Below are positions 49,246 through 64,000 of a stretch of 64,000 bases of DNA, one piece after another (the first letter of the stretch is position 1; every line of letters starts with the position of its first letter). Position numbers and translations under genes: made by a program. Source of the DNA: an uncultured Candidatus Saccharibacteria bacterium. GTDB taxonomy: Bacteria; Patescibacteriota; Minisyncoccia; Phycocordibacterales; UBA2100. The notes beneath the pieces are model-generated. The model was not told where the DNA came from. It worked only from the letters and a program-made list of their open reading frames with translations, and did not search any database. Where the stretch lies: positions 4,081 through 68,080 of the forward strand of contig CAYRHX010000004.1 of NCBI GenBank assembly GCA_964424265.1. Direction: 5' to 3'.

Positions 49246-50086
49246 ATTTGTCGGGATTGTACCATGGAGCTGTGCAAAACTTGTGTTGACAGAAAAACCG
49301 ATGGTATCATTCAGGTACCACAAAAGGCTGTGGGGGCTAAATAGAAAAGGGCCCGGAGCAAACCGAACCCTTTTCCTCTCGATACAGGCTACGACTCGGT
49401 CGTGGCCTTTGTCGTTTTTTGCTCATCTAGCTTGCGCCAGATGGGAAAACATCTAAAGCCAAACTTGCGAGCATGCAACCGCCTCCCATTTTTGAGCCGA
49501 CGATACGGCACACACGCAACCAAGACGTACCCACGAGCTTTGCGCTCTTGTGAATCCATACATGTATTGGATTAACTCCAAACTGTCCCTATTTCTGCCC
49601 AGCCAATGATCGACCACTGAACGTCAACAGGAATTAATCGAGCCTGACCTGCCCGGAACTCGCGGCAGGTGGAGCCCGACCTATGAAATCAAAGAGCCTT
49701 ACACGCAGGTACTTGAGGTCGGCAACGATGACTCGTTAGCAACCCTGCTCTCGCAAGGTCTTTCAACCCTGCAAGTACCAGCGTCTAAGGCTTTTGAGTG
49801 AACAAAACTTATTCCTGGTAATTGCACACGTACCTGCGTCCTCTTTCGAGGCTCTTATATCATCGCAAGTCTAGCGAAGAAGTACAGTGTTTCGCGCTCC
49901 AAAGTGTGAATAACTTTTTCCCTAGTGATTAGGCTGTGAGGGAGTAGGTAAGGACATCGAAACAATCTTGCCTCAAATGCCCTATATAACTCCTGCGTAC
50001 AAGGAGCTTGCGGAACGATTATAGCGGCTCGAACATCGCACCAAACACCCAGCCACTTTGAAATAGATTCGGACTCTGAGAAGGTG

Positions 50087-50953
50087 TTACAAAGTTGTCC
50101 CTATATATTCTTCGAGCGTGATCTTCGGCTCCCATCCCAAAGCCCGTGATTTCGAGGTATCGATACCTGATCCGAGCCGATTGCCCGCTCTCTCCGGCAG
50201 CATCGTAATTTCACCTCCGATCATCTTTGCCACCTCAAGAATCGAATACTCGCGCCCCACGCCGAGTCCGTAGTCATCCCCCTCGCCCTTTTCTCCGACG
50301 AGAATGAGGCCACTCACGATATCATCTACGTGCGTGAAATTGCGCTTTTGGGTCCCCGGTGATACGACGGTGAGCGGCTCGCCTCGTGCGTGCTGTTGGC
50401 GAAAAATCTCGATGACGGTCCCATACTCTCCTGCTCTTTCACCCGGCCCGTAGACATTGTAAAAATACGTAATTGCATATGGGAGCTTGTACCAACGTGC
50501 ATAGTTGCACACGAGCTCGGTATTTGTGGCCTTGGTCCACGCATAGGGGCTCTGATCGCGCCCTACGCCGCCATCGCCGAATTTGGTGGAAGAGCCCGCG
50601 TAGACGAGTTTGCATTCCTGACCGGACAGGTTTCGTTTGCGCCAATATTCTGCAACGCCAAATGTCCCCGTCACATTGAGATCCCACACGACGGCTGGTT
50701 CCTCTACACTTTTCTCAACGCGCGAATACTCACCAAGGTGATATATGAGATCGGGTGTTTCCGGCACGTGTTTTTCTATATCTTTTGTGTGTCCCTCTCG
50801 GTACTCGACGCCCGACACGTGATTATCACGCGAACCCGTAAAATAATTGTCGAGCGAAATTACAGAGTGTCCCTCATTCACCAAACGCTTGCATAAATGC
50901 GAGCCGATAAACCCCGCGCCACCAGTCACCAAAATTATCTGTTTGACGCTCAT
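50087..50953 (-). CDS. NAD-dependent epimerase/dehydratase family nucleotide-sugar enzyme
   Basis: Start chosen at MSVKQIILVTGGAGFIGSHLCKRL (ORF extends to 51004). YxxxK region ...SPYAWTK. Confidence 0.75.
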   Translation of the reverse strand: MSVKQIILVTGGAGFIGSHLCKRLVNEGHSVISLDNYFTGSRDNHVSGVEYREGHTKDIEKHVPETPDLIYHLGEYSRVEKSVEEPAVVWDLNVTGTFGVAEYWRKRNLSGQECKLVYAGSSTKFGDGGVGRDQSPYAWTKATNTELVCNYARWYKLPYAITYFYNVYGPGERAGEYGTVIEIFRQQHARGEPLTVVSPGTQKRNFTHVDDIVSGLILVGEKGEGDDYGLGVGREYSILEVAKMIGGEITMLPERAGNRLGSGIDTSKSRALGWEPKITLEEYIGTTL

Positions 50954-50963
50954 TCTCCACAGA

Positions 50964-51791
50964 CTATCCTGTTTCGTCGGTTTCTTCAATGATGTTCCAC
51001 TCATGTTTACTCAAACGCTTCGCATAAAATATTGCGGCGGCCGCAAAGAGGGCAACGGCGCATACGCCCAACAACCACAGAAAAGGACTGCTCGAAGCAG
51101 TATTCGCAGCAGCTACATTTTCTGGCGTTGTGCTGGTCGCAATGTCACCTTTCTCACCACTTTCTAATGCAAGAGGCTCTGCCGTATCGACAGACGATTC
51201 TGCAACAACTTTTGCCACCACTTTTGGTTTTGATGCAGCCTTGGTGGGCTCTTTGGGCGAAAGCACAAGAGCGTTCGGTAACATGGCCGCGCCTGGACTA
51301 GGCGAACGAGGGACAAACGAGGATTCTGCGCTTGCGCGATTCAAAGAATTTCCATCTCCCGCAGCTCCCATCGAACTTTGGTAGATGATCGTATCGACAT
51401 CGGTGCTACTCGCGTTGCGCAGAGAGATCGTCTCACCGCTATTGCTCAAACTAAACGCACTGTCAAAAAGCGGACCGCGGTAATCTGGCCAATCAATTTT
51501 ATAACTCGTCGCATTATCGGCGATGATGGCGTACGCACCTGGCAGAAGCATGGCGCCATGAGAGACTGCCGTAATCTTGTGCGCGGTCCCATTCTCGAAC
51601 AATCTATACGTACTCAAGGACACTTCTATGGTTCCTGCGTTATATACCTCTACCCATTCTCTTCCACCATCAGCTCCTGATTGAAGATCGTACATCAGCT
51701 CGGTAACGACAACCTGCGCATTCACAATACCTGGAAATACACAGAATAATCCCAAAATGAGAATGGTTGGTTTACCGATCAAGATTGTCAT
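50964..51791 (-). CDS. Lamin-tail-domain (LTD) protein with signal peptide and C-terminal TM anchor
   Basis: Start at MTILIGKPTILILGLFCVFPGIVNA (signal peptide). LTD block VVVTELMYDLQSGADGGREWVEVYNAGT...ETISLRNASSTDVDTIIY. C-terminal FLWLLGVCAVALFAAAAIFYAKRL. Confidence 0.7.
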   Translation of the reverse strand: MTILIGKPTILILGLFCVFPGIVNAQVVVTELMYDLQSGADGGREWVEVYNAGTIEVSLSTYRLFENGTAHKITAVSHGAMLLPGAYAIIADNATSYKIDWPDYRGPLFDSAFSLSNSGETISLRNASSTDVDTIIYQSSMGAAGDGNSLNRASAESSFVPRSPSPGAAMLPNALVLSPKEPTKAASKPKVVAKVVAESSVDTAEPLALESGEKGDIATSTTPENVAAANTASSSPFLWLLGVCAVALFAAAAIFYAKRLSKHEWNIIEETDETG

Positions 51792-53595
51792 CCTCTCGAA
51801 GGAGGCGCTGGAGAACTTCTGGAGAAACTTCGCTACTTCGTTCATCCCGTACAGTATCTCGCGAATTCTGGTGACGCGGAGGAAGCGCAGAACGAGACTG
51901 TGGATGCGGTCGAGGGGCATGCTCATGCACTTGCGCGCGGTCATGACGTTGACTCATTTTGTTGGCATTTTTCTCGCGCAAAATGTCCGCTGGCGAACGA
52001 ATCGGCCCGGCACTCGAAACATCCTGAAGTGGCGTCGCTCGAACATGCCTGAGTGCCGCGCGGAGCGCATCGCGTGGATCAGAAGCAGATTGAGTCACCC
52101 TGTTCGGAGTACCATGCGCATGCGGTGGAGGATGTACCGCAAATCCTTTCGTCTGCAGTGCGCTCTGTTGGATGTGCGAAGATACCCCAGGTGGTGACTG
52201 TGTGGGACGTGCCGCAGGGCTCTCAGGACGCGGCCGCGTTCCGTATGCGCTTCCAGAATTCGACTCCTTTGGTTTTTTGGGCGGCGGCTGAAATTCGAGT
52301 TGGCGCCTATTGACCCCCGCCTCGACCTCAGCGCGCGACCGACCGTAGAGTGCACGCGAATTCCGCACGCAATCGTCACGATATGAGATCGGGGGTGTAT
52401 CGATGGGAGGAATTGTCTCTGCCGAAAACGGTTTGGTGCCGACGCCGTCTACCATAAGCGTAAGATATATCTGGCCGATACCGAGCCCCACGAGATCCGC
52501 CGGCAAAAAGATCGGATCAAACACGGGTTCGAGCACCGCGGCGTCGAAGGGGCCGACACGAAATACGATCAGTGTGCCGACGTTGCCAAACACCGCATCG
52601 CGCACCTCCTCTTCCATCTGCTCGATATATTGGTTGGCGAGCGTCAGCGCCAATTTGTATTTGCGCGATTCCGAAAGAATGTCGGCAAACGCTTCGTTCA
52701 TCATCGATTGAAACTCGTCGACGTAAAAATAGTGGCGCGGCAATTTCGCCATACGCACGGCAGGCTCATCGGCGCGCGACATCGCGGCAAGATAAATCTT
52801 CACGACGAGCATACTGCCAAGCAAAGATGCGTTGGTCTCGCCCATGCGCCCCTTCGAGAGGTTGACGATAAAGATCTTCTTTTCATCCATGATCTTCCGG
52901 AGGTCGAAAGAGGATTTCCCTTGCCCCACGATGTTTCGTATCAGCGGATTAGCGGTAAATTGACCGATCTTGTTTTGGATCGCGGGTGTTGCTTCTCGCG
53001 TATAGGTATCGGTAAACGCCGCAAACTCTTCCACCCAAAACCCGCGTACGATAGGATCGGTTATTTTTTCCACAACGGACGCGCGAAACGCCTTATTGGT
53101 GAGCATGCGATTCACATCGAGCAGTGTCGAATCCGGGTACTCTAGAAGTGCCAAGAGCGTATTCTGCAAAATATATTCCATTCTCGCGCTCCACGTATCC
53201 ACCCATATGCGCTTGAGCGCACCCATGAGTCCGGAGACCACCAGGTGACGCTTGTCGTAGCCGACGTCCTCCATCACATTGAATCCAATCGGGTGATCGG
53301 TATCAAACGGAGCAAAATACACAACGTCTTTAATGCGGTCATGAGGCACAAAATCAAGCAATTTTTCTGCCGTCGCACCGTGGGGATCGATAAACGATAT
53401 GCCCTCGCCGTTTTGTATATCCTGTATCGCCATGTTTTCGAGCATGGTCGATTTTCCCATGCCCGTCTTTCCGATCACGTATATGTGTTTGCCGCGATCG
53501 GCGGCGCGTATACCAAATATCTCGCGCTTGCCGCGCGTATGCGTCGCCGCAAAATACGTTATACGGCGATCATCGCTTTGATGATCGGGATGCAT
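51772..53595 (-). CDS. TraD/TraG/VirD4-like type IV secretion coupling ATPase homolog (TrwB_AAD_bind-type), cytoplasmic form with disordered Pro/Arg-rich tail
   Basis: 607 aa. Walker A IYVIGKTGMGKST, Walker B YFYVDEFQ. C-terminal about 170 aa low-complexity. Confidence 0.6.
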   Translation of the reverse strand: MHPDHQSDDRRITYFAATHTRGKREIFGIRAADRGKHIYVIGKTGMGKSTMLENMAIQDIQNGEGISFIDPHGATAEKLLDFVPHDRIKDVVYFAPFDTDHPIGFNVMEDVGYDKRHLVVSGLMGALKRIWVDTWSARMEYILQNTLLALLEYPDSTLLDVNRMLTNKAFRASVVEKITDPIVRGFWVEEFAAFTDTYTREATPAIQNKIGQFTANPLIRNIVGQGKSSFDLRKIMDEKKIFIVNLSKGRMGETNASLLGSMLVVKIYLAAMSRADEPAVRMAKLPRHYFYVDEFQSMMNEAFADILSESRKYKLALTLANQYIEQMEEEVRDAVFGNVGTLIVFRVGPFDAAVLEPVFDPIFLPADLVGLGIGQIYLTLMVDGVGTKPFSAETIPPIDTPPISYRDDCVRNSRALYGRSRAEVEAGVNRRQLEFQPPPKKPKESNSGSAYGTRPRPESPAARPTQSPPGVSSHIQQSALQTKGFAVHPPPHAHGTPNRVTQSASDPRDALRAALRHVRATPLQDVSSAGPIRSPADILREKNANKMSQRHDRAQVHEHAPRPHPQSRSALPPRHQNSRDTVRDERSSEVSPEVLQRLLREDDNLDR

Positions 53596-53630
53596 GCTTG
53601 CAGTATATCGTATTTTGCTTAGCCGCAGAG

Positions 53631-55193
53631 TTATCGCCCTACGCCCTGTGACTCACCGGGTGCATACAAACTATGTACGAAGTTCAATAGCTTTCGCACA
53701 TCACTTTCTGAATCTTGGGAACCAAGAACGATAACAGCAATCTCGCGCTCCTCGTCCCCGATTTTGACATTGAATATGCCGGCGTAGGTCTCGAACGCTT
53801 CTCTCGTTTGGCCCACCTTCCCTCCTAGCAATGTCGCGGGGGCGTTTTTGATAAGATTGAAATTGCGAACGTTTTTAAACTCCGGTGTTCCATATACACT
53901 GTCTTTTATATCGCCCGAGGTAATGCCAAAAACAAAACGCCTGTTATCGCGAATATATCGCAGAAGCATGAAAAGATCTTGCGGCGTAGAATAATCGCCT
54001 TTTGCACCCGAAGGATCTGAAAAAATCGTGTGCGTGAGGCCGATCGCTTTCGCCTTCTCATTCATGTATTTCACAAATTGATCCCGACCTGTAATTGCGG
54101 CCAATGTTTCCGCGGCCTCATTGGAAGATTCCTGTAGAAGGAGAAACAAGAGGTCGTATACGCGCGCATCAGTGCCAACGCGCAACCGCGGAACTGATGT
54201 GTACACGATGGCATCCTCCGGGACTGCGATGGTTTTGTCGAGATTTATATACTCAGTGGCCACGAGCGCGCTCACGAGTTTGGAAATCGAAGCAATGGGT
54301 GCCGCTATCGAGGCTCCTTTCTCCGATAGGACCGTCCCGTTTTTCGCATCAGCCACGAGATACGAAGTCGCCGACACTGCTGGCGCTTTGAGCTGGTAGC
54401 CGAAAGAATCTTCCACGGGCGGAGCATTGTAGACGACCACTGACATCTCGGCAGATGCCAAGTCATATACTCGCTTCGCATCTTCGGTAGAAAGTCTGAT
54501 GCAACCACCAGAATAGGATGAGGCAACGGGAGTACCGTCTTCATAGTACGGCCACCCATGTATGAAGAAATTGCCCTGGAACGCGATGCTCCATGGTTGA
54601 TACACTTTTCCAAATGTTGAGAAGTGATTTTTCTCTTTTGTCTGGACGCGATAAATGCCCGCTGGCGTTTCCCACCACGAACCAGCTTTTCCTTTCGCGA
54701 GTATTGGCACTTCGAGCGCCACGACGCCATCGACGTTTACGCGCAGAAGCATGAGCGAGAGGTCGGCATCGATAAAAGAAACCTTGCTTGCCGTGAGTGA
54801 GGCCTTCACATCTTCGTAGTATCCTCGATCGGAGAGGGTCGCGAGCGCTCCGTAGACAAGAGGAAGGGTGGTTGATGCTGTCGAGGAGGGAATAGAAATG
54901 GAGTATACGGTTGGGGGTTTGTAGAGCACGTATCCGGAAAAACCGAGTGCCGCAAATGAAAGTACCGCGAGTATTGTGGTCGAGGCAGGTAGTGGCCAAC
55001 TCAACCCTCGATGAAGCTCTGCACGCGGCGGCGCGACGTCCTTTTGTGCAGTTGAGTGTCCCGACGCGAGCGAGGTCAAAAGTGCCTCACTCGTCCAGCC
55101 CTCAATCATGAGGCGACTCAATATTGCACCGTCCGACATTCCTTGCCTTCGAAGAAATTCGATACGTACCGTCGGATCGTCGATTCGTGTCAT
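53631..55193 (-). CDS. Bifunctional L,D-transpeptidase (YkuD) + serine D-Ala-D-Ala carboxypeptidase (S11/PBP5-like)
   Basis: Start chosen at MTRIDDPT (ORF extends to 55454). YkuD catalytic HGWPYYEDGTPVASSYSGGCIRLS. SxxK motif SISKLVSAL and S11-like C-terminal half. TM near N-terminus. Confidence 0.7.
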   Translation of the reverse strand: MTRIDDPTVRIEFLRRQGMSDGAILSRLMIEGWTSEALLTSLASGHSTAQKDVAPPRAELHRGLSWPLPASTTILAVLSFAALGFSGYVLYKPPTVYSISIPSSTASTTLPLVYGALATLSDRGYYEDVKASLTASKVSFIDADLSLMLLRVNVDGVVALEVPILAKGKAGSWWETPAGIYRVQTKEKNHFSTFGKVYQPWSIAFQGNFFIHGWPYYEDGTPVASSYSGGCIRLSTEDAKRVYDLASAEMSVVVYNAPPVEDSFGYQLKAPAVSATSYLVADAKNGTVLSEKGASIAAPIASISKLVSALVATEYINLDKTIAVPEDAIVYTSVPRLRVGTDARVYDLLFLLLQESSNEAAETLAAITGRDQFVKYMNEKAKAIGLTHTIFSDPSGAKGDYSTPQDLFMLLRYIRDNRRFVFGITSGDIKDSVYGTPEFKNVRNFNLIKNAPATLLGGKVGQTREAFETYAGIFNVKIGDEEREIAVIVLGSQDSESDVRKLLNFVHSLYAPGESQGVGR

Positions 55194-55197
55194 AGCT

Positions 55198-56430
55198 TTA
55201 TTCTTTACCGAGGACCACCCTAAGGCTTCGATATTTGTTTGCCGGGTCCCAAAAGAGATATGAATCGAGCCCAGCGTCTTCGTTTGCCTTAATCTGCTCT
55301 TGCACCATCGCTGGCGTGTAGGTAACGGGATAATCAAAGCTTTGGAGCCAGGGGCGTATTTTAGACGCAGGATACGCGGGCTTCGAGTACACCGCGGGAG
55401 TTGAGGTCCCAATACGTTCGTAGGCGAATGATGCGATCGGCGTTGTCGTTGCAAGGGTTCGTCTTACCGCCTCGACCATGGAAAGATGTACTATGTCGTA
55501 CGAATGGGAGTTCACATCCTTATACCCATTGAATCCGCTTGGATAGTGCGAGGGATACACCATTGGATCAATGAAGTCGAAGTACGGCAGTGCGCGCTCC
55601 AGTACTTGACCAATATTCAGATCATCTTGATTTGTGGCCGTCATCCCAAAGAGATCCGCCGATGTAACGACCCCTATAGGCTCGAGTTGCTCAGACAGAT
55701 ACTTGAAAAAACTCTCGAGTACTTCCGGCTTTGTGCGGCCATCGGCCCACGAATACACCGCCTCTTTCATCGGACCGTCTGAGGGAAAGCGGATGTAGTC
55801 AAAGTTGAGTTCATCAAAACCAATCGCGTACGATTCTTTGGCCAATTCCACGACGTTGTCCCAGTATGGTTTTGCCCCCACGTCTACAAACGCGAGACCT
55901 TTGTGATCCTTCCACACGCCTCCACCACTCTTTTGCACTGCTTCGTCAGGATGGACTTTTGTGTACGCGGGATTTTGAAACGTGGTGATGCGGCCGATGA
56001 CATAAATATCTTTTTCGTGCAGCTCTTTGATAAACGCCTTCATATCACGTGCCCCACAGGCATCCGACACATAGTCTTTGAGTGAAGGATTGTCTGTAGG
56101 AAACGCTATCTTTCCTGTGTAATCTCGAATATCGATAAGGAGGGCATTGATCTCCGTAGTGTCAACAAGCTCAATCAAATCTTTGCGAAACGAAGGCGTG
56201 CCAGCCGCGCATTGCGACATATACACCGCCTTCACTGTGGGCGGCGTAGCAAGATGCTGCACCTCTGGCTCTGTAGGTGTGATCACGCCATTTGAACCTA
56301 CGACTTGAGCAACATTGCCGCCACGAATATACGAAACTTTCGGCATAGCAGAAGCCACTGCGGCTACAACACCAACAGAAAGGAGAAACAGTACTCCGAG
56401 TATCAATATCCTACTGCGCCAATTCTTCAT
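55198..56430 (-). CDS. Secreted glycoside-hydrolase-like TIM-barrel protein (DUF4015/GHL-type)
   Basis: 410 aa. Signal/TM ILILGVLFLLSVGVVAAVASA. GFDELNFDYIRFP motif typical of this hypothetical GH-like family. Confidence 0.55.
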   Translation of the reverse strand: MKNWRSRILILGVLFLLSVGVVAAVASAMPKVSYIRGGNVAQVVGSNGVITPTEPEVQHLATPPTVKAVYMSQCAAGTPSFRKDLIELVDTTEINALLIDIRDYTGKIAFPTDNPSLKDYVSDACGARDMKAFIKELHEKDIYVIGRITTFQNPAYTKVHPDEAVQKSGGGVWKDHKGLAFVDVGAKPYWDNVVELAKESYAIGFDELNFDYIRFPSDGPMKEAVYSWADGRTKPEVLESFFKYLSEQLEPIGVVTSADLFGMTATNQDDLNIGQVLERALPYFDFIDPMVYPSHYPSGFNGYKDVNSHSYDIVHLSMVEAVRRTLATTTPIASFAYERIGTSTPAVYSKPAYPASKIRPWLQSFDYPVTYTPAMVQEQIKANEDAGLDSYLFWDPANKYRSLRVVLGKE

Positions 56431-56635
56431 GTCGGTGAGCGCTTTCGGCGTATGTCTCTCCAGTTCTTGAGGCAGCTGACTGTCCGCTGCCTCGTCTGCG
56501 CACCACGATCCCCAACGCCACTACCAAAATCCCTGCAATCAAGAAAAGCACGGTATCCCAGCTCTGTGGAAATCCCAAAAACGGCAACGTAGCCACAAAC
56601 GCCCCCAACGTCATAAGAAGTGTGTCGACTGTCAT
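56411..56635 (-). CDS. Small two-TM membrane protein
   Basis: 74 aa. LLMTLGAFVATLPFLGF and VLFLIAGILVVALGIVV. Start overlaps RT stop region. Confidence 0.4.
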   Translation of the reverse strand: MTVDTLLMTLGAFVATLPFLGFPQSWDTVLFLIAGILVVALGIVVRRRGSGQSAASRTGETYAESAHRHEELAQ

Positions 56636-57666
56636 GCGGAAATTATACCATTACTTTTTCCCACCTGTCTTTTGCTCAATAATGACAACAAATTCTCCGT
56701 CAGCATCCACGCATTCCCATGCTCCAACATACCCGCATAAGATTGTATCGTCGGGCTTTCTTTCTCAAGTCTTGAGACACGTTTCTGCATCCTCCTCTTC
56801 GTACTCGTGCGAAGAACGCGATGATCGGGAAAGTGCACCCACCCGAGGAAATCAATGCCGGATGCGAAGGTCTGAATGGATACCTTATCGGGATGCAACG
56901 CAAGGCTGAGCTTCGCATCAAGAAACGTCTGGATGCGCGGCAGCAGTACTTCGAGGTCCGAACGTGAGGCAGAGAGAATCACAAAATCATCCGCATACCG
57001 AACGTAATGGTTTATTCGAAGCCGATGCTTCACGAATTGGTCAAATTCATTCATGTATACGTTCACGAGCAGCTGCGAGGTGAGGTTGCCGAGAGGCAGC
57101 CCTTTCCCTTCTTTGGTCGAATGAAAGCTACCGATGACTTCGGCGACAAGGGCGCAGATCCTCTCGTCAGGAATATAACGACCTACGATGTCGTTAATGA
57201 TGCGGTGGTCAATCGAGGCGAAGAACTTCTTGATGTCGCACTTGAGTACCCAGCACGTGCGGGTGTGGTTGCGGGAGACTTTCGCGGCAAGCTGCATGAA
57301 GCGTCCCATCGCTCGATGTGTTCCCTTTCCCTTCCTACATGAATATGAATCTGCGATCCATGTGCGGTCGAAGAATGGGTACAGTTTCCTGTACAGAGCG
57401 TGATGCAATAGTCGATCACGAACTGTCGCCTTGTGGATGTCTCGGGGCTTCGGATCGCTGATCTTGAATGCCTCGTACAGCCCGTGACGATACTTCCCAC
57501 CCGTAAGGTCACAATGGAGTGCGAAGACGTTGCCCATCAACTTGTATTGAAACTCTTGCACGTCTTGCTTCTTGCGTTTGCCTCTCACAAACTCCTTCCA
57601 TGCTGCGAGGAGATTCTCTACGCAAATGATATCCTCGTAGGTATGAGTGAGTTGGATGCGAGCCAT
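56632..57666 (-). CDS. Diversity-generating retroelement reverse transcriptase
   Basis: 344 aa. DGR-diagnostic LPLGNLTSQLLVNVYM ((I/L)GxxxSQ replacing QGxxxSP). Catalytic YVRYADDFVIL. TR located 418 bp upstream on the same strand. Confidence 0.9.
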   Translation of the reverse strand: MARIQLTHTYEDIICVENLLAAWKEFVRGKRKKQDVQEFQYKLMGNVFALHCDLTGGKYRHGLYEAFKISDPKPRDIHKATVRDRLLHHALYRKLYPFFDRTWIADSYSCRKGKGTHRAMGRFMQLAAKVSRNHTRTCWVLKCDIKKFFASIDHRIINDIVGRYIPDERICALVAEVIGSFHSTKEGKGLPLGNLTSQLLVNVYMNEFDQFVKHRLRINHYVRYADDFVILSASRSDLEVLLPRIQTFLDAKLSLALHPDKVSIQTFASGIDFLGWVHFPDHRVLRTSTKRRMQKRVSRLEKESPTIQSYAGMLEHGNAWMLTENLLSLLSKRQVGKSNGIISA

Positions 57667-57722
57667 CCCAGAAACCGTACCCCCCCCCCGCCCGATTCCG
57701 CAACAACAATTCGTGCCCGTCG

Positions 57723-58069
57723 TATCTAAACTTAAAGACGCATATCTAATCTGGCAAAGCTTTCTTCCCCATGTCGCGAAAGCTCATCGGCAAACGATTG
57801 CACACAGGATCGATACAGAGCTTTTAGAAACGCTGTCGTCGAGTTTTAGAGCTGCTTATCTAAAAGATGAGCGGAAGATTGCCGCTATAGAAGCCGCTCT
57901 TGCACGACTTGATCTTGCAAAATTCTTTTTGATTATTGGTTGGGAAATGAAAATGTTGACGGATTCACAATACGCACAGATCTCAGAGTATCTCGTGGAG
58001 GCAAGCAAAATGCTGGTGGGATGGAAAAACTATCTTGAAAAGAAAACTCCCGCGCAACGAGAACGTTGA
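57723..58069 (+). CDS. avd: Avd-like accessory variability determinant (four-helix-bundle / 23S rRNA IVS-protein family)
   Basis: About 115 aa from GTG 57723 (alternative ATG at 57656 would overlap the RT start head-to-head). C-terminal ISEYLVEASKMLVGWKNYLEKK matches the Avd hallmark (E.G+mLGGW.k). Sits between RT and TR but on the opposite strand. Confidence 0.65.
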
Positions 58070-58083
58070 TGGGAGAAAGACGT

Positions 58084-58197
58084 GAGTTTCTGACAACAAG
58101 GCGATTCTCGCGATTCCAGACGTTGTCGTTGTCGAGCGAGTTCACGTTGCGGTTCCACTGCCTGCCATTGCGATTCGCGTAGGCCACGGAGACTTTT
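58084..58197 (-). repeat. DGR template repeat (TR)
   Basis: 114-bp alignment with 58461-58574. All 21 mismatches (18 in the 58084-58193 core, plus 58194-58196) are at T on the plus strand, i.e. A on the minus/TR-sense strand. No non-A substitutions. Encodes Asn-rich ...VSVAYANRNGRQWNRNVNSLDNDNVWNRENRLVVRNS. Confidence 0.9.
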
Positions 58198-58415
58198 GTA
58201 CTCTGCGCCATCTGTACCACCGCCCATTGAGTTCTCTCCAGGCTGTATCTGATGCGGGGTCGTGAGCCCTCGAGCGTAGAGCACCAACTCATTTCTTTTT
58301 TGCGGGAATTGCACCCGAAACCTCGCCATTCCAAGCCAAAATAATAATTTGGGCCGAAAATGCCAGCGTGTTCTAAATAATTGTACCCCACCCGCGCGAT
58401 TGCGGATGGGGTACG

Positions 58416-58460
58416 GGACGCTCGAAGAAAGTGACCAAGGGTCACAGGTTCGAAGCGTCC
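58416..58460. promoter_or_regulatory. Nested GC hairpin immediately 3' of VR (DGR hairpin/cruciform-like). Second hairpin at 58383-58414.
   Basis: gtgacc-aag-ggtcac (58431-58445) nested within ggacgctcgaag...cttcgaagcgtcc arms. Adjacent gtacccca...tggggtac hairpin (58383-58414). Target gene stop codon lies inside the hairpin. Confidence 0.6.
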
Positions 58461-59083
58461 GAGTTGCTGACAACAAGGCGATGCCCGCGATCCCAGACGC
58501 GGCCGTGGCCGAGCGAGTACACGTCGCGGAGCCACTGCCTGCCACCGCGACCCGCGTAGGCCACGGAGACCGATCCGTCTGCGTTTTCGACGGGAAAGAA
58601 GTTGGCGAATCCGTCGGTTCGGAAGCCGAAGTCCTCACCGCCCTCCTGCTTCTTGACGAACTTCTCCTGCTTCTCGATCATCAGATCGATTTTCTGGGAG
58701 GCCAGTGTATGGCCTCCCTGCTTGAGGCGATTGGCGATCTCCTCGATCGTCGCGGTTTCGGGCAGCTTGAGGAGCGCGCGGAACATTTGCGCGAACATCA
58801 TGTTTTGACGGAGTCCGAATGTGGTCACCGACGTCGACCCGAGCGTCGTCTGCTTGACCGCGACGAACAGCGAGGGCTTTGGTTCGGAAGCCGCTGCCGG
58901 ATCCTTCGGGGCAAGAAGCTGGTCGAAGGCAACGGCAAGCAGCTCTTGAAGCTCGGCCCCCCTGGTATTGCAAGTCTTGATAACCTGGGCCGGATCACGA
59001 CCCTCGACCACTTGGGCGAGCGCTTTCGCGACTGGCCCGATGACTTCCGCGAATTGCGGGTTAGTGAAGGCTGTTCCACCCAT
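58442..59083 (-). CDS. DGR target protein (variable C-terminal about 38 aa)
   Basis: 213 aa. VR occupies the last about 38 codons. GAGGG RBS-like motif 8 nt upstream of ATG. No obvious signal peptide. Confidence 0.8.
   Translation of the reverse strand: MGGTAFTNPQFAEVIGPVAKALAQVVEGRDPAQVIKTCNTRGAELQELLAVAFDQLLAPKDPAAASEPKPSLFVAVKQTTLGSTSVTTFGLRQNMMFAQMFRALLKLPETATIEEIANRLKQGGHTLASQKIDLMIEKQEKFVKKQEGGEDFGFRTDGFANFFPVENADGSVSVAYAGRGGRQWLRDVYSLGHGRVWDRGHRLVVSNSDASNL
58461..58574 (-). repeat. DGR variable repeat (VR) within 3' end of target gene
   Basis: Counterpart of the TR. Encodes ...VSVAYAGRGGRQWLRDVYSLGHGRVWDRGHRLVVSNS. AAC/AAT codons of the TR appear as GGT/CTC/GAC/TAC/CAC/CGC/GAT/CAT. 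Confidence 0.9.
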
Positions 59084-59254
59084 GGTGGCTGTTCCCTCTG
59101 ATGCTGCCGCATGATTGCGTTTAAGGCATTGTCGATTGACTTTGCCACAGCGGAAAAAGGCCTATTTTAAGCCGCTTTCCGCCATGGCAAAATCCACCTT
59201 TTCTCAAAGAACGAGGGTAAATTTATACCACGAGATTTAGGTATCTCCAAATTT

Positions 59255-59974
59255 TCATTTTGTTTTTGAGCGAGAGCGGATTTCAATGATGACAACAAAC
59301 TCACCCCGGACACCTTTCTTTTTCTCCAACCGATCTGCTAGTTCGAGCGGCGTACCGACGAGCACTTCTTCGTGCATTTTAGTGATCTCACGCGCAATGG
59401 TCACACGAGCGTTCGGAATGAATTTTTCGATTTCAGAAAGTAGCTTGATGACTCGGTGCGGTGACTCGTAGAGCACGACTGTATATTCTGAAGTTGCGAT
59501 CTTTTTGAGTGCGGTCTGCCTTCCCTTCTTATGCGGAAGAAATCCCAGAAACGTAAAAGCGTCTCCTGTCATTCCCGCAATCGAGAGCGCGGCGGTAAGT
59601 GCGGACGGTCCTGGGATCGCATCGATCTTTGCTTCTGGAAGATTCTCGCGGATATACGCGACCAATCGCGCACCCGGATCAGAGACCCCAGGCGTTCCAG
59701 CATCGGAAACGTACACTACGTGTTCTCCCTTCTCAAGCCGATCAGCAATTTCTTTTGCCTTCGTGACTTCGGTCGATGCGTCGAGTCGAAATACCGACGT
59801 GCGAAGTCCGTAATGCGCGAGAAGCTTCGCAATCACGCGCGTGTCTTCAGCATAAATCGCATGTGCCTCTTTCAGATTCCATAATCCTCGAAAGGTAATA
59901 TCTCCCATGTTGCCAATGGGCGTCGCAACTATCGAAAGAGTGCCGGTGGTCGAAGAATCGTGCTCGTTCATCAA
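59255..59974 (-). CDS. rsmI: 16S rRNA (cytidine1402-2'-O)-methyltransferase
   Basis: 239 aa. LSIVATPIGNMGDITFRGLWNLKEAHAIYAEDTR is the RsmI/tetrapyrrole-methylase-fold signature. Confidence 0.85.
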   Translation of the reverse strand: MMNEHDSSTTGTLSIVATPIGNMGDITFRGLWNLKEAHAIYAEDTRVIAKLLAHYGLRTSVFRLDASTEVTKAKEIADRLEKGEHVVYVSDAGTPGVSDPGARLVAYIRENLPEAKIDAIPGPSALTAALSIAGMTGDAFTFLGFLPHKKGRQTALKKIATSEYTVVLYESPHRVIKLLSEIEKFIPNARVTIAREITKMHEEVLVGTPLELADRLEKKKGVRGEFVVIIEIRSRSKTK

Positions 59975-59980
59975 TCCACA

Positions 59981-61264
59981 CTACTCCCCTACAATCTGTT
60001 CTGCAACCTTGTAGATGTCACCCGCACCCATCGTAATAACGAGAGCATCTGTTTCCTCGAGTAAGCGACCTCGAATCTCATCGAATGAATCGATAGCCTC
60101 TACATCTCCCCCTAGCTTCTGCGCCGCCTCTGCGAGAATGCGATGCGAGACAGTGGGATCGAGCGTCTCGCGTGCCGCATAAATAGGAGCAACAAACGCC
60201 ACGTCCGCTGTCGCAAGTGCACCGGCAAACTCGTGGAGCAGCGATTTGGTACGGCTATAGAGGTGCGGATGGAAGGCGACGACGATCTTTTTACCGGTGA
60301 ACCTTTCGCGTGCCGCTTCAATGGTCTTCGCAATCGCGGTGGGATGGTGCGCGTAGTCATCGTACACGAGAGCACCATTCGGCGTCTCCCCCTTATATTC
60401 AAATCGTCGCCACGAACCCTTAAAACCCTCAAGGGCGAGATCCGCGACATCGCCGGGAATATCTGGAAACGCCACTAATGCGGCAGTCTTCGCAGCCCGC
60501 GCGTTCATGCGATTAAACTCACCAATCTGAGAAAGCGCCGGCACGTCGATTCGAGTATGGTCGATGACTTTCGCACGAATATTTTTGAGAACGGGAGCAA
60601 TGTTCTCATCGTTTGGATCGGCGATAATACATCCGTGCGCGGGTATTTTCTCCGCGGCTGCTCTAAACGTCTCTTGCAATGCTGCGAGATCGGGGAAGTA
60701 ATCGGTATGGTCAAGCTCGATGTTGGTAATGACAAGAATTTCCGGTGAGAGCTTGAGGATGTGATCACGATACTCGCACGCCTCAACAACAAAAAGGTCG
60801 GACTGGCCCGGGAGAAAATTTGATCCAAAATCGCGCACGATGGAACCGACGATCGCGGTGGGTTCTTTCTTTGCCTGCGCCAAAATGAGGGCGAGCATGC
60901 CGGTCGTCGTTGTCTTCCCGTGCGTCCCGGCGACTGCAATCGTCCGCGCACCATCTGAAACCGCACCAAGCGCTTCAAAATAGGACATCTCAGGAATTCC
61001 CATCTCGCGCGCTCGCGTGCGCTCGACATTGCTCTCTGGTATCGCGTCGCTATATACAAGAAGCTCAGCGTCGGCGGGAATATTGCATTGATCGTGCCCT
61101 ATCACCACGTCAATCCCAACTTCCGCGAGCATGACAGTAACGGGCGATTCGTCTCGATCCGACCCACTGACCTTGCGCCCAGTGTGTTTCAAAAATTGCG
61201 CGAGCGCCGACATTCCAATGCCCCCGATGCCGACCATGTATATCGAATCAGGTACCTGCATCAT
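59981..61264 (-). CDS. murC: UDP-N-acetylmuramate--L-alanine ligase
   Basis: 427 aa. IYMVGIGGIGMSALAQFLKHTGRKVSGSD...AVAGTHGKTTTTGMLA. Confidence 0.9.
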   Translation of the reverse strand: MMQVPDSIYMVGIGGIGMSALAQFLKHTGRKVSGSDRDESPVTVMLAEVGIDVVIGHDQCNIPADAELLVYSDAIPESNVERTRAREMGIPEMSYFEALGAVSDGARTIAVAGTHGKTTTTGMLALILAQAKKEPTAIVGSIVRDFGSNFLPGQSDLFVVEACEYRDHILKLSPEILVITNIELDHTDYFPDLAALQETFRAAAEKIPAHGCIIADPNDENIAPVLKNIRAKVIDHTRIDVPALSQIGEFNRMNARAAKTAALVAFPDIPGDVADLALEGFKGSWRRFEYKGETPNGALVYDDYAHHPTAIAKTIEAARERFTGKKIVVAFHPHLYSRTKSLLHEFAGALATADVAFVAPIYAARETLDPTVSHRILAEAAQKLGGDVEAIDSFDEIRGRLLEETDALVITMGAGDIYKVAEQIVGE

Positions 61265-61306
61265 TTCAGACTATCATGTCCCGACGAAACGATATACAAT
61301 CGGACT

Positions 61307-61570
61307 ATGAGCAAAGGCGAGAAGAAACCAAAATTCAATTTCGAAGAATTGAAAGCAGCCGCCACGAGCGCGGACGCAAAAATCCGGAAAAGAGTTTTTG
61401 AAGAATACTTTGAACAATTCGAAGAATTCCCGTCCTACCTCTTCGACAACACCAACGGCATCGATAGTCGACTCCAGGAGACAATAGAGGATCTGAAAAA
61501 AGATCCGGATACGTCGAAAAGCCTGCAGAAAGGAATCCTCGCCCTCATGCAGCGTCTTCCATCGTCCTAA
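61307..61570 (+). CDS. Small hypothetical protein (87 aa, acidic/helical)
   Basis: ATG at 61307. MSKGEKKPKFNFEELKAAATSADAKIRKRVFEEYFEQFEEF... Convergent with murD. Confidence 0.4.
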   Translation: MSKGEKKPKFNFEELKAAATSADAKIRKRVFEEYFEQFEEFPSYLFDNTNGIDSRLQETIEDLKKDPDTSKSLQKGILALMQRLPSS

Positions 61571-62900
61571 CTATCCCCAAAAACTGGTCGTTGCGCTCGT
61601 ATTCGTTTTTGAACATTCCAAACGACGCAAAAGCCGGACTGAAGAGAATGACCTCGCTTCTTTTGGTAACGGCAACATCCATTGCCTGCTGCAAGCTCCC
61701 CACTTCCTCATACGCAATCCCCGCCTCTTGCAAAACACCGACCAGTCGTGCGGAACCTTTGTAATTCGAGTGCATGAGTACAATAACGTGCGAAACATTT
61801 TTTTTGATTTCTGAAACAAGCTCCCCGAGCGGCAAATCCTTCTCCGAACCGCCTACAATAAGCGTACAGCTTCCTCCCACCGCACGCAGTGCCGCAATGG
61901 TGGCCTCGGGCGTCGTTGCGTTGTTGTCGTTGTAAATCTTTCCCCCCCCAACCTCGCGGACGAGTTGCAGGCGGCCTTCAACGCCTTCAAACGATTCGAC
62001 TCCTGCGCGTATTTCGTCCTCTGACAAACCAAGTGCAGAAAGCGCGGCGGCTGCAAGCGATGCATTCTCGCGGTTATGTGTACCGATGATTTTCAAACTC
62101 CAATCTGCGGGTATCGGATCGGGGACGAGCGGCGCGACCTCCGGTCGCGCCGCCTCCACGCGCTCCCGGACAGACGACCCAACAAACAAAGAATCTCCGC
62201 TTTTCTGAAACCGAAAAATATTCGCCTTGTCTGCAAAATACGCGTCCATGCTCGGATAATAATTTTGATGGTCCGGCATGAGATTGGTAAACACGGCAAT
62301 ATCGGGACTAATTTTCAAATCACCAAACCCCTGCAACTGCCACGAATCAAGCTCAAGCACGCAGATGTCACCAGCTCGAACATCGGGAAGCATAGCGAGT
62401 GTGGACTTACCGCGAATGTTGCCACCGAGAAAGATTTTTCTTTCTCGCCCCGAGCCCGGTCGAGGGGCTGCGCTTTTCAGCGCATAAAAAATCGCGTGCG
62501 TAACTGTTGATTTCCCTCGGGTACCGGTAACGCCGACAATCTGCGCTCCTGCCTCTCTGGCATATTTTGCAAAAAGCGCTGTCGACATATACACGGGCAC
62601 CTCCGCATCGCGCGCGGCAGCAATTTCTGGAGAGTCGAGCGGTATTCCCGCCGCTTTCACCACCATTTCGGTGTCGATAAAATCTTCCTTCCGATGACCG
62701 CCAAGATGGAATGTGACGTTCGGATACTTTTTTAACTTCTCAACCGATTCCATCAGTTCGGCCTCGCTTTTTTTATCAGTGACCGTCAGCTCAGCACCGC
62801 ACTGCGCCAAAAACTCAGCGTCCCCCACCCCACGCCCTAGCAGCCCAAGCCCAAGTAAAGTGATGCGCTTGCCTTTAAAAGACTCAGTATACTCTTCCAT
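61545..62900 (-). CDS. murD: UDP-N-acetylmuramoylalanine--D-glutamate ligase
   Basis: 451 aa. KRITLLGLGLLGRGVGDAEFLAQCGAELTVTD...VGVTGTRGKSTVTHAI. Confidence 0.9.
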   Translation of the reverse strand: MEEYTESFKGKRITLLGLGLLGRGVGDAEFLAQCGAELTVTDKKSEAELMESVEKLKKYPNVTFHLGGHRKEDFIDTEMVVKAAGIPLDSPEIAAARDAEVPVYMSTALFAKYAREAGAQIVGVTGTRGKSTVTHAIFYALKSAAPRPGSGRERKIFLGGNIRGKSTLAMLPDVRAGDICVLELDSWQLQGFGDLKISPDIAVFTNLMPDHQNYYPSMDAYFADKANIFRFQKSGDSLFVGSSVRERVEAARPEVAPLVPDPIPADWSLKIIGTHNRENASLAAAALSALGLSEDEIRAGVESFEGVEGRLQLVREVGGGKIYNDNNATTPEATIAALRAVGGSCTLIVGGSEKDLPLGELVSEIKKNVSHVIVLMHSNYKGSARLVGVLQEAGIAYEEVGSLQQAMDVAVTKRSEVILFSPAFASFGMFKNEYERNDQFLGIVRTMEDAA

Positions 62901-62944
62901 AAAGCCACTATAACATTCGCTGCCTTACGATTATCTCCGAAAGT

Positions 62945-63092
62945 TTCCACGCATTCCCATGTTCCAACATCCCCAGATACGAAGCCACCACATTTCAATT
63001 TCCGGATGCGATGGCATGAATAGATACCTTTTAGCTTACGAATCCACTCATCCGAAATATAACGACCTACGATGTCGTTAATGACACAAAAC
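62945..63092 (-). pseudogene. Heavily deleted remnant of a second DGR-type reverse transcriptase (3' end fragments)
   Basis: Three collinear segments match the RT gene 3' region: 62945-62979 vs 56705-56739, 62996-63032 vs 56851-56887, 63053-63083 vs 57169-57199. About 500 bp of RT collapsed to about 150 bp. Confidence 0.6.
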
Positions 63093-63096
63093 GAAA

Positions 63097-63138
63097 ACCC
63101 TCGGGCCCAAAGTACAGAAGTACAGAGGGTCCGAGGGT
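63097..63138 (-). terminator. GC-rich hairpin (12-bp stem, 18-nt loop) immediately 3' of gene 63161-63931. Terminator and/or DGR-type VR-flanking hairpin.
   Basis: accctcgggccc...gggtccgagggt (one mismatch). On the minus strand it is followed by TTTCGTTTTGTG. Confidence 0.5.
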
Positions 63139-63160
63139 CAGACGCACGAAGGGCAGAAGT

Positions 63161-63931
63161 TCAGATTGCGAGGAGCGGGGAGACATTGGCGCGATAGCGA
63201 CCAAGGACGAGCCAGCCGCAGCCCCAGCACCACGAGCCGCCGCCGCGGCGGCGGTAGAGGCACAGGAAGTACCGGCGGCCGCCCGAGCTGCGCAGCGCGG
63301 TTGCGAATTCCATCCACGAAATTCCGTGCGTATCGTAGAGGAACCGCAATGTTACTTGACCCTTCTCGTCGAGGAGGGCTTGTCCCACCCCCGCGTCGAG
63401 GCGGATTCGCGGGTCGGCCTTCATCCGATCGAGCTTCTCCTCCCCTGTGATGCGAGTCTCTCCCTCCTTGAGAAAGTGCCCGAACCCGACTTTCGAGAAG
63501 TCGATTTCGGTCAAGCCGAGCGAGCGAGGATCTTGATCCTCGTCGCCCTCCAGACCGCCCCCATCGATCGGACCCCGCCAGATGCGCGATCCTTGACCAA
63601 GAAATCTGACGGGGTCGAAAGGTTTCGAGCGATCAATAACAAGGACGCTCGTGCCTTTTATCGTGAGGCGGCAGCCATTGTTGAGGAAGACAGTAAAGCG
63701 CCGCCCCAATTCTTCCCGCGATAACGCGATGACGTTTTGTTGGAGAGGATCGTGCTCAATCGACCCCCACTTGGTGTCGGTCGAGAAGCGCGCGATGAGT
63801 TCGCGGCTCTGGTCGCCTGATGCAACTTTCATCATTACCTCCATTTGCGCTGGACCATCCTCGCACGGGACTGTGCAAGGTAGGCTGGACGCACGCTGCG
63901 GCAACTTTTCACCGCAGGACAGAAAGGCCAC
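63161..63931 (-). CDS. Hypothetical protein with VR-like Gly/Arg/Trp-rich C-terminus (candidate second DGR target)
   Basis: 256 aa. C-terminus GGRRYFLCLYRRRGGGSWCWGCGWLVLGRYRANVSP resembles diversified C-type-lectin-fold VR tails (RGGSW....R.A.R...P). No cognate TR found in the window. Confidence 0.45.
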   Translation of the reverse strand: MAFLSCGEKLPQRASSLPCTVPCEDGPAQMEVMMKVASGDQSRELIARFSTDTKWGSIEHDPLQQNVIALSREELGRRFTVFLNNGCRLTIKGTSVLVIDRSKPFDPVRFLGQGSRIWRGPIDGGGLEGDEDQDPRSLGLTEIDFSKVGFGHFLKEGETRITGEEKLDRMKADPRIRLDAGVGQALLDEKGQVTLRFLYDTHGISWMEFATALRSSGGRRYFLCLYRRRGGGSWCWGCGWLVLGRYRANVSPLLAI

Positions 63932-64000
63932 AAAGCCCCTCTATTCTGCGGTGAATGCACGCTGGACTTTCAAAGAACAGTCCGAGATTATGCTATGAAA

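Follow-up and report, generated by a model that had tools for sequence, protein, structure and literature searches.

Two hairpins downstream of the variable repeat of a diversity-generating retroelement from a Candidatus Saccharibacteria bacterium

The retroelement and the hairpins behind its variable repeat

Our analysis concerned a diversity-generating retroelement (DGR) in DNA of an uncultured Candidatus Saccharibacteria bacterium (GenBank assembly GCA_964424265.1, contig CAYRHX010000004.1) and two consecutive hairpins which lie immediately downstream of its variable repeat (VR). The whole stretch of 64,000 nucleotides (nt) that was analysed, hereafter the window, spans positions 4,081 to 68,080 of the contig, and all coordinates count from its first letter. 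The DGR comprises a target gene with the VR at its 3' end, a template repeat (TR), a gene for a reverse transcriptase (RT) and an open reading frame (ORF) resembling Avd:

58461..58570, minus strand: VR, 110 nt, repeat copy of 58084-58193 at the 3' end of the target ORF
58084..58193, minus strand: TR, the 110-nt repeat partner of the VR
58442..59083, minus strand: DGR target gene, 213 amino acids (aa), with the VR as its C-terminal coding part
56632..57588, minus strand: DGR RT, 318 aa (Pfam RVT_1, E 3e-25; start supported by P0001)
57647..58069, plus strand: Avd-like accessory ORF (Pfam bAvd, E 2e-6, 28.7 bits; curated cut-off 40)
58416..58460, minus strand: hairpin 1, the VR-proximal nested (segmented) hairpin, 45 nt
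58442..58444, minus strand: target stop codon TGA, the end of ORF 58442..59083, within the inner stem (5' arm) of hairpin 1
58373..58414, minus strand: hairpin 2 with a weak T tract (stem-loop 58414→58383, tail AATTATTTAG 58382→58373)

Comparison of TR and VR over their 110 nt revealed 17 mismatches, all 17 of which fall on adenines of the TR (minus strand) and none on other bases. This adenine bias, the RVT_1-type RT and the Avd-like ORF identify the locus as a genuine DGR target site, as had been proposed in an earlier note on this DNA. Homologues of the RT number in the thousands, at 65-73% identity, in genomes of the Candidate Phyla Radiation (CPR; Patescibacteria) such as Kaiserbacteria. 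It is 58-73% identical to the RTs which adjoin A-biased TR/VR pairs in 55 loci, and the motifs LPLGNLTSQ (LGxxxSQ motif) and YADD are invariant in the RT alignment. The element is a standard CPR/Patescibacteria DGR, of a type which these bacteria possess in the thousands. Its Avd-like ORF lies between TR and RT, antisense to both and convergent with the TR transcript; the same gene, again with a weak bAvd match, was called on contig L081. This antisense arrangement appears to be common to the related loci, which carry a conserved antisense coding sequence after their TR terminators.

Read on the minus strand, the target coding strand on which all flank sequences are given here, the VR runs directly into hairpin 1, with 0 nt between the end of the TR/VR homology and the start of the hairpin. 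From 58460 to 58416 the sequence is GGACGCT-T-CGAA-CCT-GTGACC-CTT-GGTCAC-TTTC-TTCG-AGCGTCC, which forms an outer stem of 7 bp, a 1-nt bulge and 4 bp, internal loops CCT/TTTC (sense strand), and an inner stem GTGACC/GGTCAC closing a 3-nt loop that reads CTT in the sense direction and aag on the plus strand. The same 45 nt can be divided into four degenerate units of 8-9 nt, GGACGCTTC GAACCTGT GACCCTTG GTCACTTTC. The target TGA follows the end of the VR after 16 nt and sits at 58444-58442. One C separates hairpin 1 from hairpin 2, which reads GTACCCCATCCGC-AATCGC-GCGGGTGGGGTAC (58414→58383) and is followed by AATTATTTAG. Its stem of 13 bp includes one G·T pair and 9/13 G-C pairs, closes the 6-nt loop AATCGC and contains the plus-strand arms gtacccca (58383-58390) and tggggtac (58407-58414). 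Our re-reading of 58383-58460 agreed with the earlier note in every hairpin coordinate and sequence, in the abutment of hairpin 1 on the VR and in the position of the target stop inside it.

The significance of folding was assessed against 200 dinucleotide shuffles. The 86 nt at 58380-58465 (minus strand) fold as DNA at −27.9 kcal/mol, compared to −11.6±2.1 kcal/mol for the shuffles (z −7.8), and as RNA at −52.5 kcal/mol (z −9.8); 0/200 shuffles folded as well in either case. Taken singly, on either strand and as DNA, the two hairpins have z-scores of −4.4 to −5.1 (hairpin 1, either strand: −14.2 kcal/mol, z −5.1; hairpin 2: −13.7 kcal/mol, z −4.8), and hairpin 1 as a 46-nt RNA segment reaches z −7.5. 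The predicted structures, with energies far beyond those of shuffled sequence for both DNA and RNA, are also not a generic feature of gene ends, the alternative raised together with them. At 55 ORF ends of the window, the most stable 46-nt hairpin in the neighbourhood of the stop folds at a median of −12.2 kcal/mol, and −20 kcal/mol is reached at 4/55; this census took the antisense ORF 58349-59101 in place of the true target, which was folded separately. In a scan of the entire window by 46-nt segments (~42,600 of them), hairpin 2 ranked 7th and hairpin 1 about 23rd.

The VR flank in related retroelements

Eighty related loci were fetched, 55 of which have an A-biased TR/VR pair; together with the window they form a family of 56 loci. 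The 55 loci share a layout of target-VR, ~330 nt, TR, ~470 nt and RT. The VR 3' flanks of the family are not alignable to one another, yet all show the same two-part plan. Part 1, from the VR end to the terminator, has a median length of ~53 nt and consists of 4-6 degenerate units of ~7.5 nt. Part 2 is a GC-rich hairpin followed by a T tract and is present in 53/56 loci, the window included.

Hairpin 2 stands in the position of part 2. It starts 28 nt after the target TGA and 47 nt after the VR end, and it was the top terminator-like site in a scan of 50000-64000. Its tail AATTATTTAG holds 5 T in the 8-base window starting 2 nt past the stem, and the family counterparts show a clear T tract in 53/56 loci. 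In the relatives, a −10-like box follows ~5-25 nt after the terminator (TGnTAnnWT in 26/53, TATACT-like in most others), and behind it lies a leader RNA with covarying pairs. The order of terminator, promoter-like box and leader therefore marks the site as a boundary between two transcription units. Hairpin 2 is well supported, by its form and by its position across the family, as the predicted intrinsic (Rho-independent) terminator of the target gene. Thus, while both of the consecutive hairpins reported at the VR are real, the second is to be read as a putative terminator and not as a second homing hairpin.

The position equivalent to hairpin 1 is occupied in the 55 related DGRs by a conserved, structured module which is largely confined to DGR targets and has a tendency to form a segmented hairpin with pyrimidine loops. 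Part 1 of 54 related VR flanks has a median fold z of −1.95, with 48% below −2, compared to a median of −0.24 and 8% below −2 for 53-nt segments taken upstream of the 237 other terminators which these loci contain (Mann-Whitney p 3e-11). At least one phased CTT spacing was found in 52/56 DGR flanks versus 13/237 control flanks, and the controls with at least two such spacings number 3, all placed where a VR missed by the detector would be. Part 1 is wholly non-coding in most relatives, and its pairing begins at a median distance of 6 nt (range 0-25) past the VR end. Hairpin 1 is the window's version of part 1, a homologue of this CTT-phased module, and with its z of −7.5 it is the most stable example in the family.

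These controls bear on the view that both hairpins are purely elements of the transcript 3' end, i.e. a tandem terminator or an mRNA-stabilising structure which insulates the TR RNA unit and has no role in integration. Several observations agree with it: hairpin 2 and its homologues have the form of terminators, and the terminator scan also caught the inner stem of hairpin 1, behind which TTTCTTCGAG follows. Furthermore, the segmented hairpin runs directly into a T tract in several relatives (L003, L011, L032 and L054, a combined type, of which L011, L032 and L054 carry an extra GC hairpin upstream of the segmented one) and at a second DGR-type target of the window, described below. Tight insulation would also be useful in the relatives, where a promoter-like box and a structured leader lie directly downstream. 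However, no comparable structured, CTT-phased segment lies upstream of the 237 other terminators in these loci, and a second hairpin would add little in most loci, since a strong canonical terminator is already there. The module moreover tracks the VR end and not the T tract, and translation would unfold a hairpin that has the stop codon inside. We consider a role confined to the transcript unlikely, though it deserves serious consideration.

The repeated units of part 1 form the second feature of the module. CTT occurs at a spacing of 7-8 nt 100 times, whereas 13-15 occurrences are expected from dinucleotide shuffles (z 19), and it is the most periodic of all 64 trinucleotides in the VR flanks; the autocorrelation of C, G and T peaks at lags of 7-8, 15-16 and 22-23 nt. 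Spacing statistics were used here because a chain of at least four exact CTT triplets catches 19/55 VR flanks. The unit logo is roughly G-R-N-Y-C-T-T-D-G, with 4-5 as the modal unit number. Pyrimidines make up 78% of the unpaired positions of part 1, most apical loops read CTT, TTT or CTTT, and 69% of the CTT triplets are predicted to be unpaired in loops. An array of the CsrA type based on GGA was rejected because many arrays are without GGA, and an origin of the units from coding sequence or read-through was rejected because their period, ~7.5, is no multiple of 3.

Such regular spacing raises the question of whether the 4-6 phased units are themselves a binding platform on DNA or RNA, with the hairpin as a by-product of semi-palindromic unit cores; candidate partners would be the DGR machinery (e.g. 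pentameric Avd with the RT, or the leader RNA) or a host factor. The periodicity is indeed stronger and more widespread than the fold signal (phased CTT in 52/56 loci versus z < −2 in 48% of flanks), the unit logo is conserved although the flanks cannot be aligned, and the unit number has a mode of 4-5. The window itself points the other way, as its periodicity is weak, with one exact 8-nt CTT spacing, whereas its hairpin is the most stable of the family. Moreover, a location of most CTT triplets in predicted loops is what would be expected of structural spacers, visual inspection of the alignments of TR flank and leader revealed no repeated motif of complementary sequence, and no binding partner is known. 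A platform of this kind therefore seems to us rather improbable.

That the hairpins are chance inverted repeats or non-functional relics is very hard to reconcile with the data, and we give this possibility almost no weight. Hairpin 1 does lack alignable conservation with its relatives at the sequence level. Nevertheless, no shuffle in 200 folded as well, the two-part layout has been kept across the family at RT identities of 58-70%, and the ORF-end, CTT-spacing and fold controls are clean.

A possible role of hairpin 1 in retrohoming

In the Bordetella phage element BPP-1, a structure just past the homology boundary raises homing ~1000-fold, and does so via its structure and not its stem sequence; the distance of this hairpin is flexible, but deletion of the 4-bp spacer lowers activity (Guo 2011, PMC3240598). 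In a reconstituted system, deletion of the BPP-1 stem-loop severely impairs editing (PMC12875486). Like BPP-1 and related phage DGRs, the window has an inverted repeat directly 3' of the end of TR/VR homology, at or over the target stop, which can fold on either DNA strand and whose position would suit recipient marking and cDNA integration. On balance, we somewhat favour a reading in which the two hairpins are separate elements within the 3' flank of a CPR-type DGR target, namely a terminator and the homing-type stem-loop of this lineage. Position and conservation suggest that hairpin 1 most likely plays the role of the BPP-1 stem-loop in retrohoming. Hairpin 2 would end the target transcription unit ahead of a separate TR RNA unit. 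When the target sense strand becomes single-stranded, as the lagging-strand template or during transcription, hairpin 1 would fold at the VR boundary; the folded form could keep the VR open for annealing of the adenine-mutagenised cDNA and mark the VR, not the TR, as the recipient, which is the role proposed for the BPP-1 stem-loop.

Three points fit an action of hairpin 1 at the level of DNA: replication co-direction of the target, the stop codon inside the hairpin and the equal folding of both DNA strands. The GC skew of the plus strand is negative in every 8-kb bin of the window, and nearly all long ORFs lie on the minus strand. The window therefore looks like a single replichore arm, with its genes, including both DGR targets, co-directional with replication; the skew suggests this orientation for the target, and it is the orientation favoured for DGR editing (PMC12875486). 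As for the stop codon, a terminating ribosome would be expected to melt the RNA form of hairpin 1, which argues against a role in the translated mRNA.

The TR has a structured flank of its own. Two further features of the minus strand belong to it:

58037..58083, minus strand: TR 3' tail ACGTCTTT, stem-loop CTCCC...GGGAG (58075→58047) and T tract TTTTCTTTTC (58046→58037)
58194..58335, minus strand: TR-proximal domain of a structured leader RNA (5' boundary approximate)

The first of these is the end of the TR RNA and overlaps the 3' end of the convergent Avd-like ORF. Its stem-loop starts 9 nt past the TR, folds with a z of −3.85 and also appeared as terminator-like in the scan. In the relatives, the TR flank has a conserved, pyrimidine-rich tail AACTCTCTTCATTTCTC with a single conserved A, then a stem with the base CTC/GAG and inner pairs that vary among loci, then TTTTGTTTTG; examples of the stem arms are TCTCGCCCCG/CGGGGTTGAG, TCTCCCCCGC/GCGGGGGAG and TCTCTCCCAA/TTGGGAGAG. 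Conservation and covariation of this stem were judged by eye from the alignment, and RNAalifold on the MAFFT alignment of the TR 3' flanks, in which the loops are misaligned, gave no consensus structure. Hairpin 1 in its form is absent from the TR flank, where the stem-loop is a different structure.

Two points of interpretation are corrected by these results. A sequence difference between the mutagenic-homing initiation (IMH) element of the VR and its TR counterpart (IMH*) was sought but does not exist here, as the terminal AACTC is identical in TR and VR; the last TR/VR mismatch is an A→C change 5 nt before the homology end. Nor does the presence of a hairpin mark the VR off from the TR, because the TR too is followed by a conserved stem-loop and T tract. 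The VR is set apart from the TR by the kind of structure and not by the presence of one.

The leader RNA extends in the relatives over ~240 nt from the target terminator to the TR (e.g. L001:3171-3412). In an alignment of 31 sequences, 36/40 predicted pairs show compensatory changes, among them those of a 12-bp long-range helix. The window row aligns over the 3' domain only and lacks the 5' domain and the −10 box, and the leader has no match in Rfam. In function it may correspond to the RNA regions which flank the TR in BPP-1.

Several observations weigh against the favoured reading. DGR hairpins have been defined by a GC stem of 7-10 bp, a GRNA tetraloop and a location 4-34 bp after the VR (Guo 2011, PMC3240598; MyDGR, PMC6602519), and hairpin 1, with its interrupted stem and no 4-nt GRNA loop, falls outside this definition; it starts at a distance of 0. 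Furthermore, Wu et al. 2018 (PMC5758913) report GC-rich inverted repeats for only 34% of DGRs and terminators for a minority; such a hairpin is thus not universal among DGRs. The stem-loop 9 nt downstream of the TR means that donor and recipient are not told apart by a hairpin as such. Since ~48% of the family flanks have z < −2, the conserved feature may be the CTT-phased sequence and not the hairpin. The T tract directly after the segmented hairpin in L003, L011, L032 and L054 and at the second target indicates that this structure can act, or double, as a terminator. In addition, the window has a weak T tract after hairpin 2 (AATTATTTAG) and lacks the −10 box of the relatives, so that a degree of read-through into the TR may occur. 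Finally, the effect of hairpin 1 on retrohoming is one which we infer by analogy.

The departure from the textbook form is shared by the entire family, as a hairpin with a GRNA tetraloop 4-34 nt after the VR was found at 0/56 loci. Both hairpins of the window differ from it in stem and loop. The loop-closing stem is 6 bp in hairpin 1, whose 7-bp outer helix closes no short loop, and 13 bp in hairpin 2; relative to the VR end they lie at 0 nt and 47 nt, respectively. [quoted passage not shown] In contrast, hairpin 1 comprises 45 nt in segments of 7+4+6 bp with pyrimidine internal loops, a CTT triloop and phased units of ~8 nt, and the TR is followed by a stem-loop of its own with a T tract at the IMH*.

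A further parallel may be found in the DGR hairpins of Nanoarchaeota (Paul 2015, PMC4372165; Handa 2016, PMC5006420), which are likewise non-canonical, have a 3-nt loop and overlap the coding sequence of the target. Their loops are GRA and they lie inside the target ORFs, whereas hairpin 1 has CTT in the sense and AAG in the antisense direction and overlaps only the last 5 codons and the stop; a phased CTT array has not been described for them (PMC4372165, PMC5006420). Like intrinsic terminators, hairpin 2 and its homologues consist of a GC stem with a T tract behind it, past a stop codon, and in some relatives the VR-proximal hairpin and the terminator are a single structure. Unlike such terminators, hairpin 1 is without a T tract of its own, and that of hairpin 2 is weak. 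Terminator stem-loops are also the targets of group IIC introns (discussed in Guo 2011, PMC3240598). The survey of Wu et al. 2018 (PMC5758913) covers the same position, downstream of the IMH; in the family studied here, module plus terminator is near-universal (53/56).

A decayed second cassette, an upstream hairpin and implications

The window holds a second, incomplete DGR cassette and two copies of a further hairpin:

63161..63931, minus strand: second DGR-type target with an orphan VR (~63300→63165) at its VR-like 3' end
63097..63138, minus strand: nested hairpin and terminator of the same design as hairpin 1, followed by TTTTCGTTTTG
62934..63084, minus strand: what remains of a second DGR RT gene, two pieces covering aa 130-144 and 281-298
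59136..59196, minus strand: conserved, cassette-specific hairpin of ~48 nt, 60-105 nt upstream of the target start codon
63903..63960, minus strand: second copy of this upstream hairpin

The real start of the second target is probably the ATG at 63832. Its 3' end, ccccgctcctcgcaa followed by TCTGA, resembles the VR ends of the family, and the orphan VR matches the TR of the Kaiserbacteria locus L005 at 69% over 120 nt, with mismatches mostly at TR adenines (by eye, not tallied). A second TR for this VR at 63 kb was rejected, as no TR partner is present in the window. The RT remnants were recognised by direct repeats D2, D3 and D5 shared with 56694-57200 and by tblastn fragments of 80% and 72% identity. 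An intact-looking target ORF remains, while leader, TR, avd and most of the RT are deleted. An orphan VR without a TR and with RT fragments directly downstream points to a decayed second DGR cassette which has kept its flanking structures.

The hairpin that the earlier note had placed after this second candidate VR is real, but it carries a T tract and follows the orphan VR of a decayed DGR. From 63138 to 63097 it has the stems ACCCTCGG/CCGAGGGT, CCC/GGG and GTAC/GTAC with loops TCT, TTCT and TTT, and it folds with z −4.2 as DNA and −5.1 as RNA. It starts 23 nt after the stop at 63161 and has the properties of an intrinsic terminator, a GC-rich stem-loop past a stop codon with the T tract TTTTCGTTTTG. 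The structure unites VR-proximal hairpin and terminator, as in L003, L011, L032 and L054. Neither of the two DGR-type target proteins has a match in Pfam (E ≤ 10) or in a PDB sequence search, and BLASTP of the two against each other gave no similarity; the targets of the CPR DGR set are likewise without such matches (Wu et al. 2018, PMC5758913).

The two upstream hairpins are the strongest 46-nt hairpins of the window, with −31.4 kcal/mol for the best, within 59136-59196. Their consensus is TTGCCAYRGC-NGAAAG-...-TTTTYC-GCYRTGGCAA, located 60-120 nt before the start codons of both targets. In the family alignment, RNAalifold found compensatory changes in 19/21 pairs. A covariance model, R1, matched only these two sites in the 64 kb; across 590 kb of related loci its matches were confined to the equivalent position, in ~30 loci of which ~10 were outside the training set. 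The hairpin is without a T tract and scores higher on the sense strand. It has no match in Rfam, and a search of 55500-64000 on both strands against Rfam gave nothing at E ≤ 1. Neither the phased CTT module nor the upstream hairpin nor the leader is described in the literature that we searched, of which Paul et al. 2017 (PMC5436926) was not a part.

With respect to the surroundings of the DGR, a TrwB/TraG-like type IV coupling protein ORF lies a few kb away at 51772-53595 (minus strand), adjoining genes for peptidoglycan enzymes (a YkuD/Peptidase_S11 fusion and DUF4015) and Mur ligases. Both public assemblies with a 100% identical RT (contigs L081 and L082) end before the TR, short of the hairpins; an assembly fragmented by the TR/VR repeat or by VR hypervariability would be expected to break there. 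When metagenome contigs were scanned for exact copies of a 26-nt stretch of hairpin 1, none came up.

Overall, a hairpin after the VR is a known kind of feature, and its form here appears to be new. The differently built module with its terminator, the stem-loop after the TR and the identity of IMH and IMH* imply that annotation rules based on BPP-1 do not carry over to this clade. As regards the window, the analysis adds the annotation of one intact and one decayed DGR cassette with their non-coding parts. To our knowledge, the DGRs of the CPR are the most numerous in nature, and the only defined cis-signals of DGRs come from one phage element.

We tentatively propose, as a possibility which falls short of being probable, that hairpin 1 belongs to an undescribed lineage-specific target-site element, a segmented hairpin built from 4-6 phased ~7.5-nt 'GRNYCTTD' units and read by the CPR DGR machinery. 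If so, the array would replace the GC stem and GRNA tetraloop of phage DGRs and define the recipient site, and its reader could be pentameric Avd with the RT, or the covarying leader RNA upstream of the TR. Array, upstream hairpin and structured leader would then be the CPR DGRs' own set of cis-elements, and they offer concrete elements for mutation in a reconstituted system. The main step of DGR biology still to be solved is the way in which the mutagenised cDNA locates the VR and replaces it (PMC12875486), and the proposed element, if true, would give a defined handle on this integration step.

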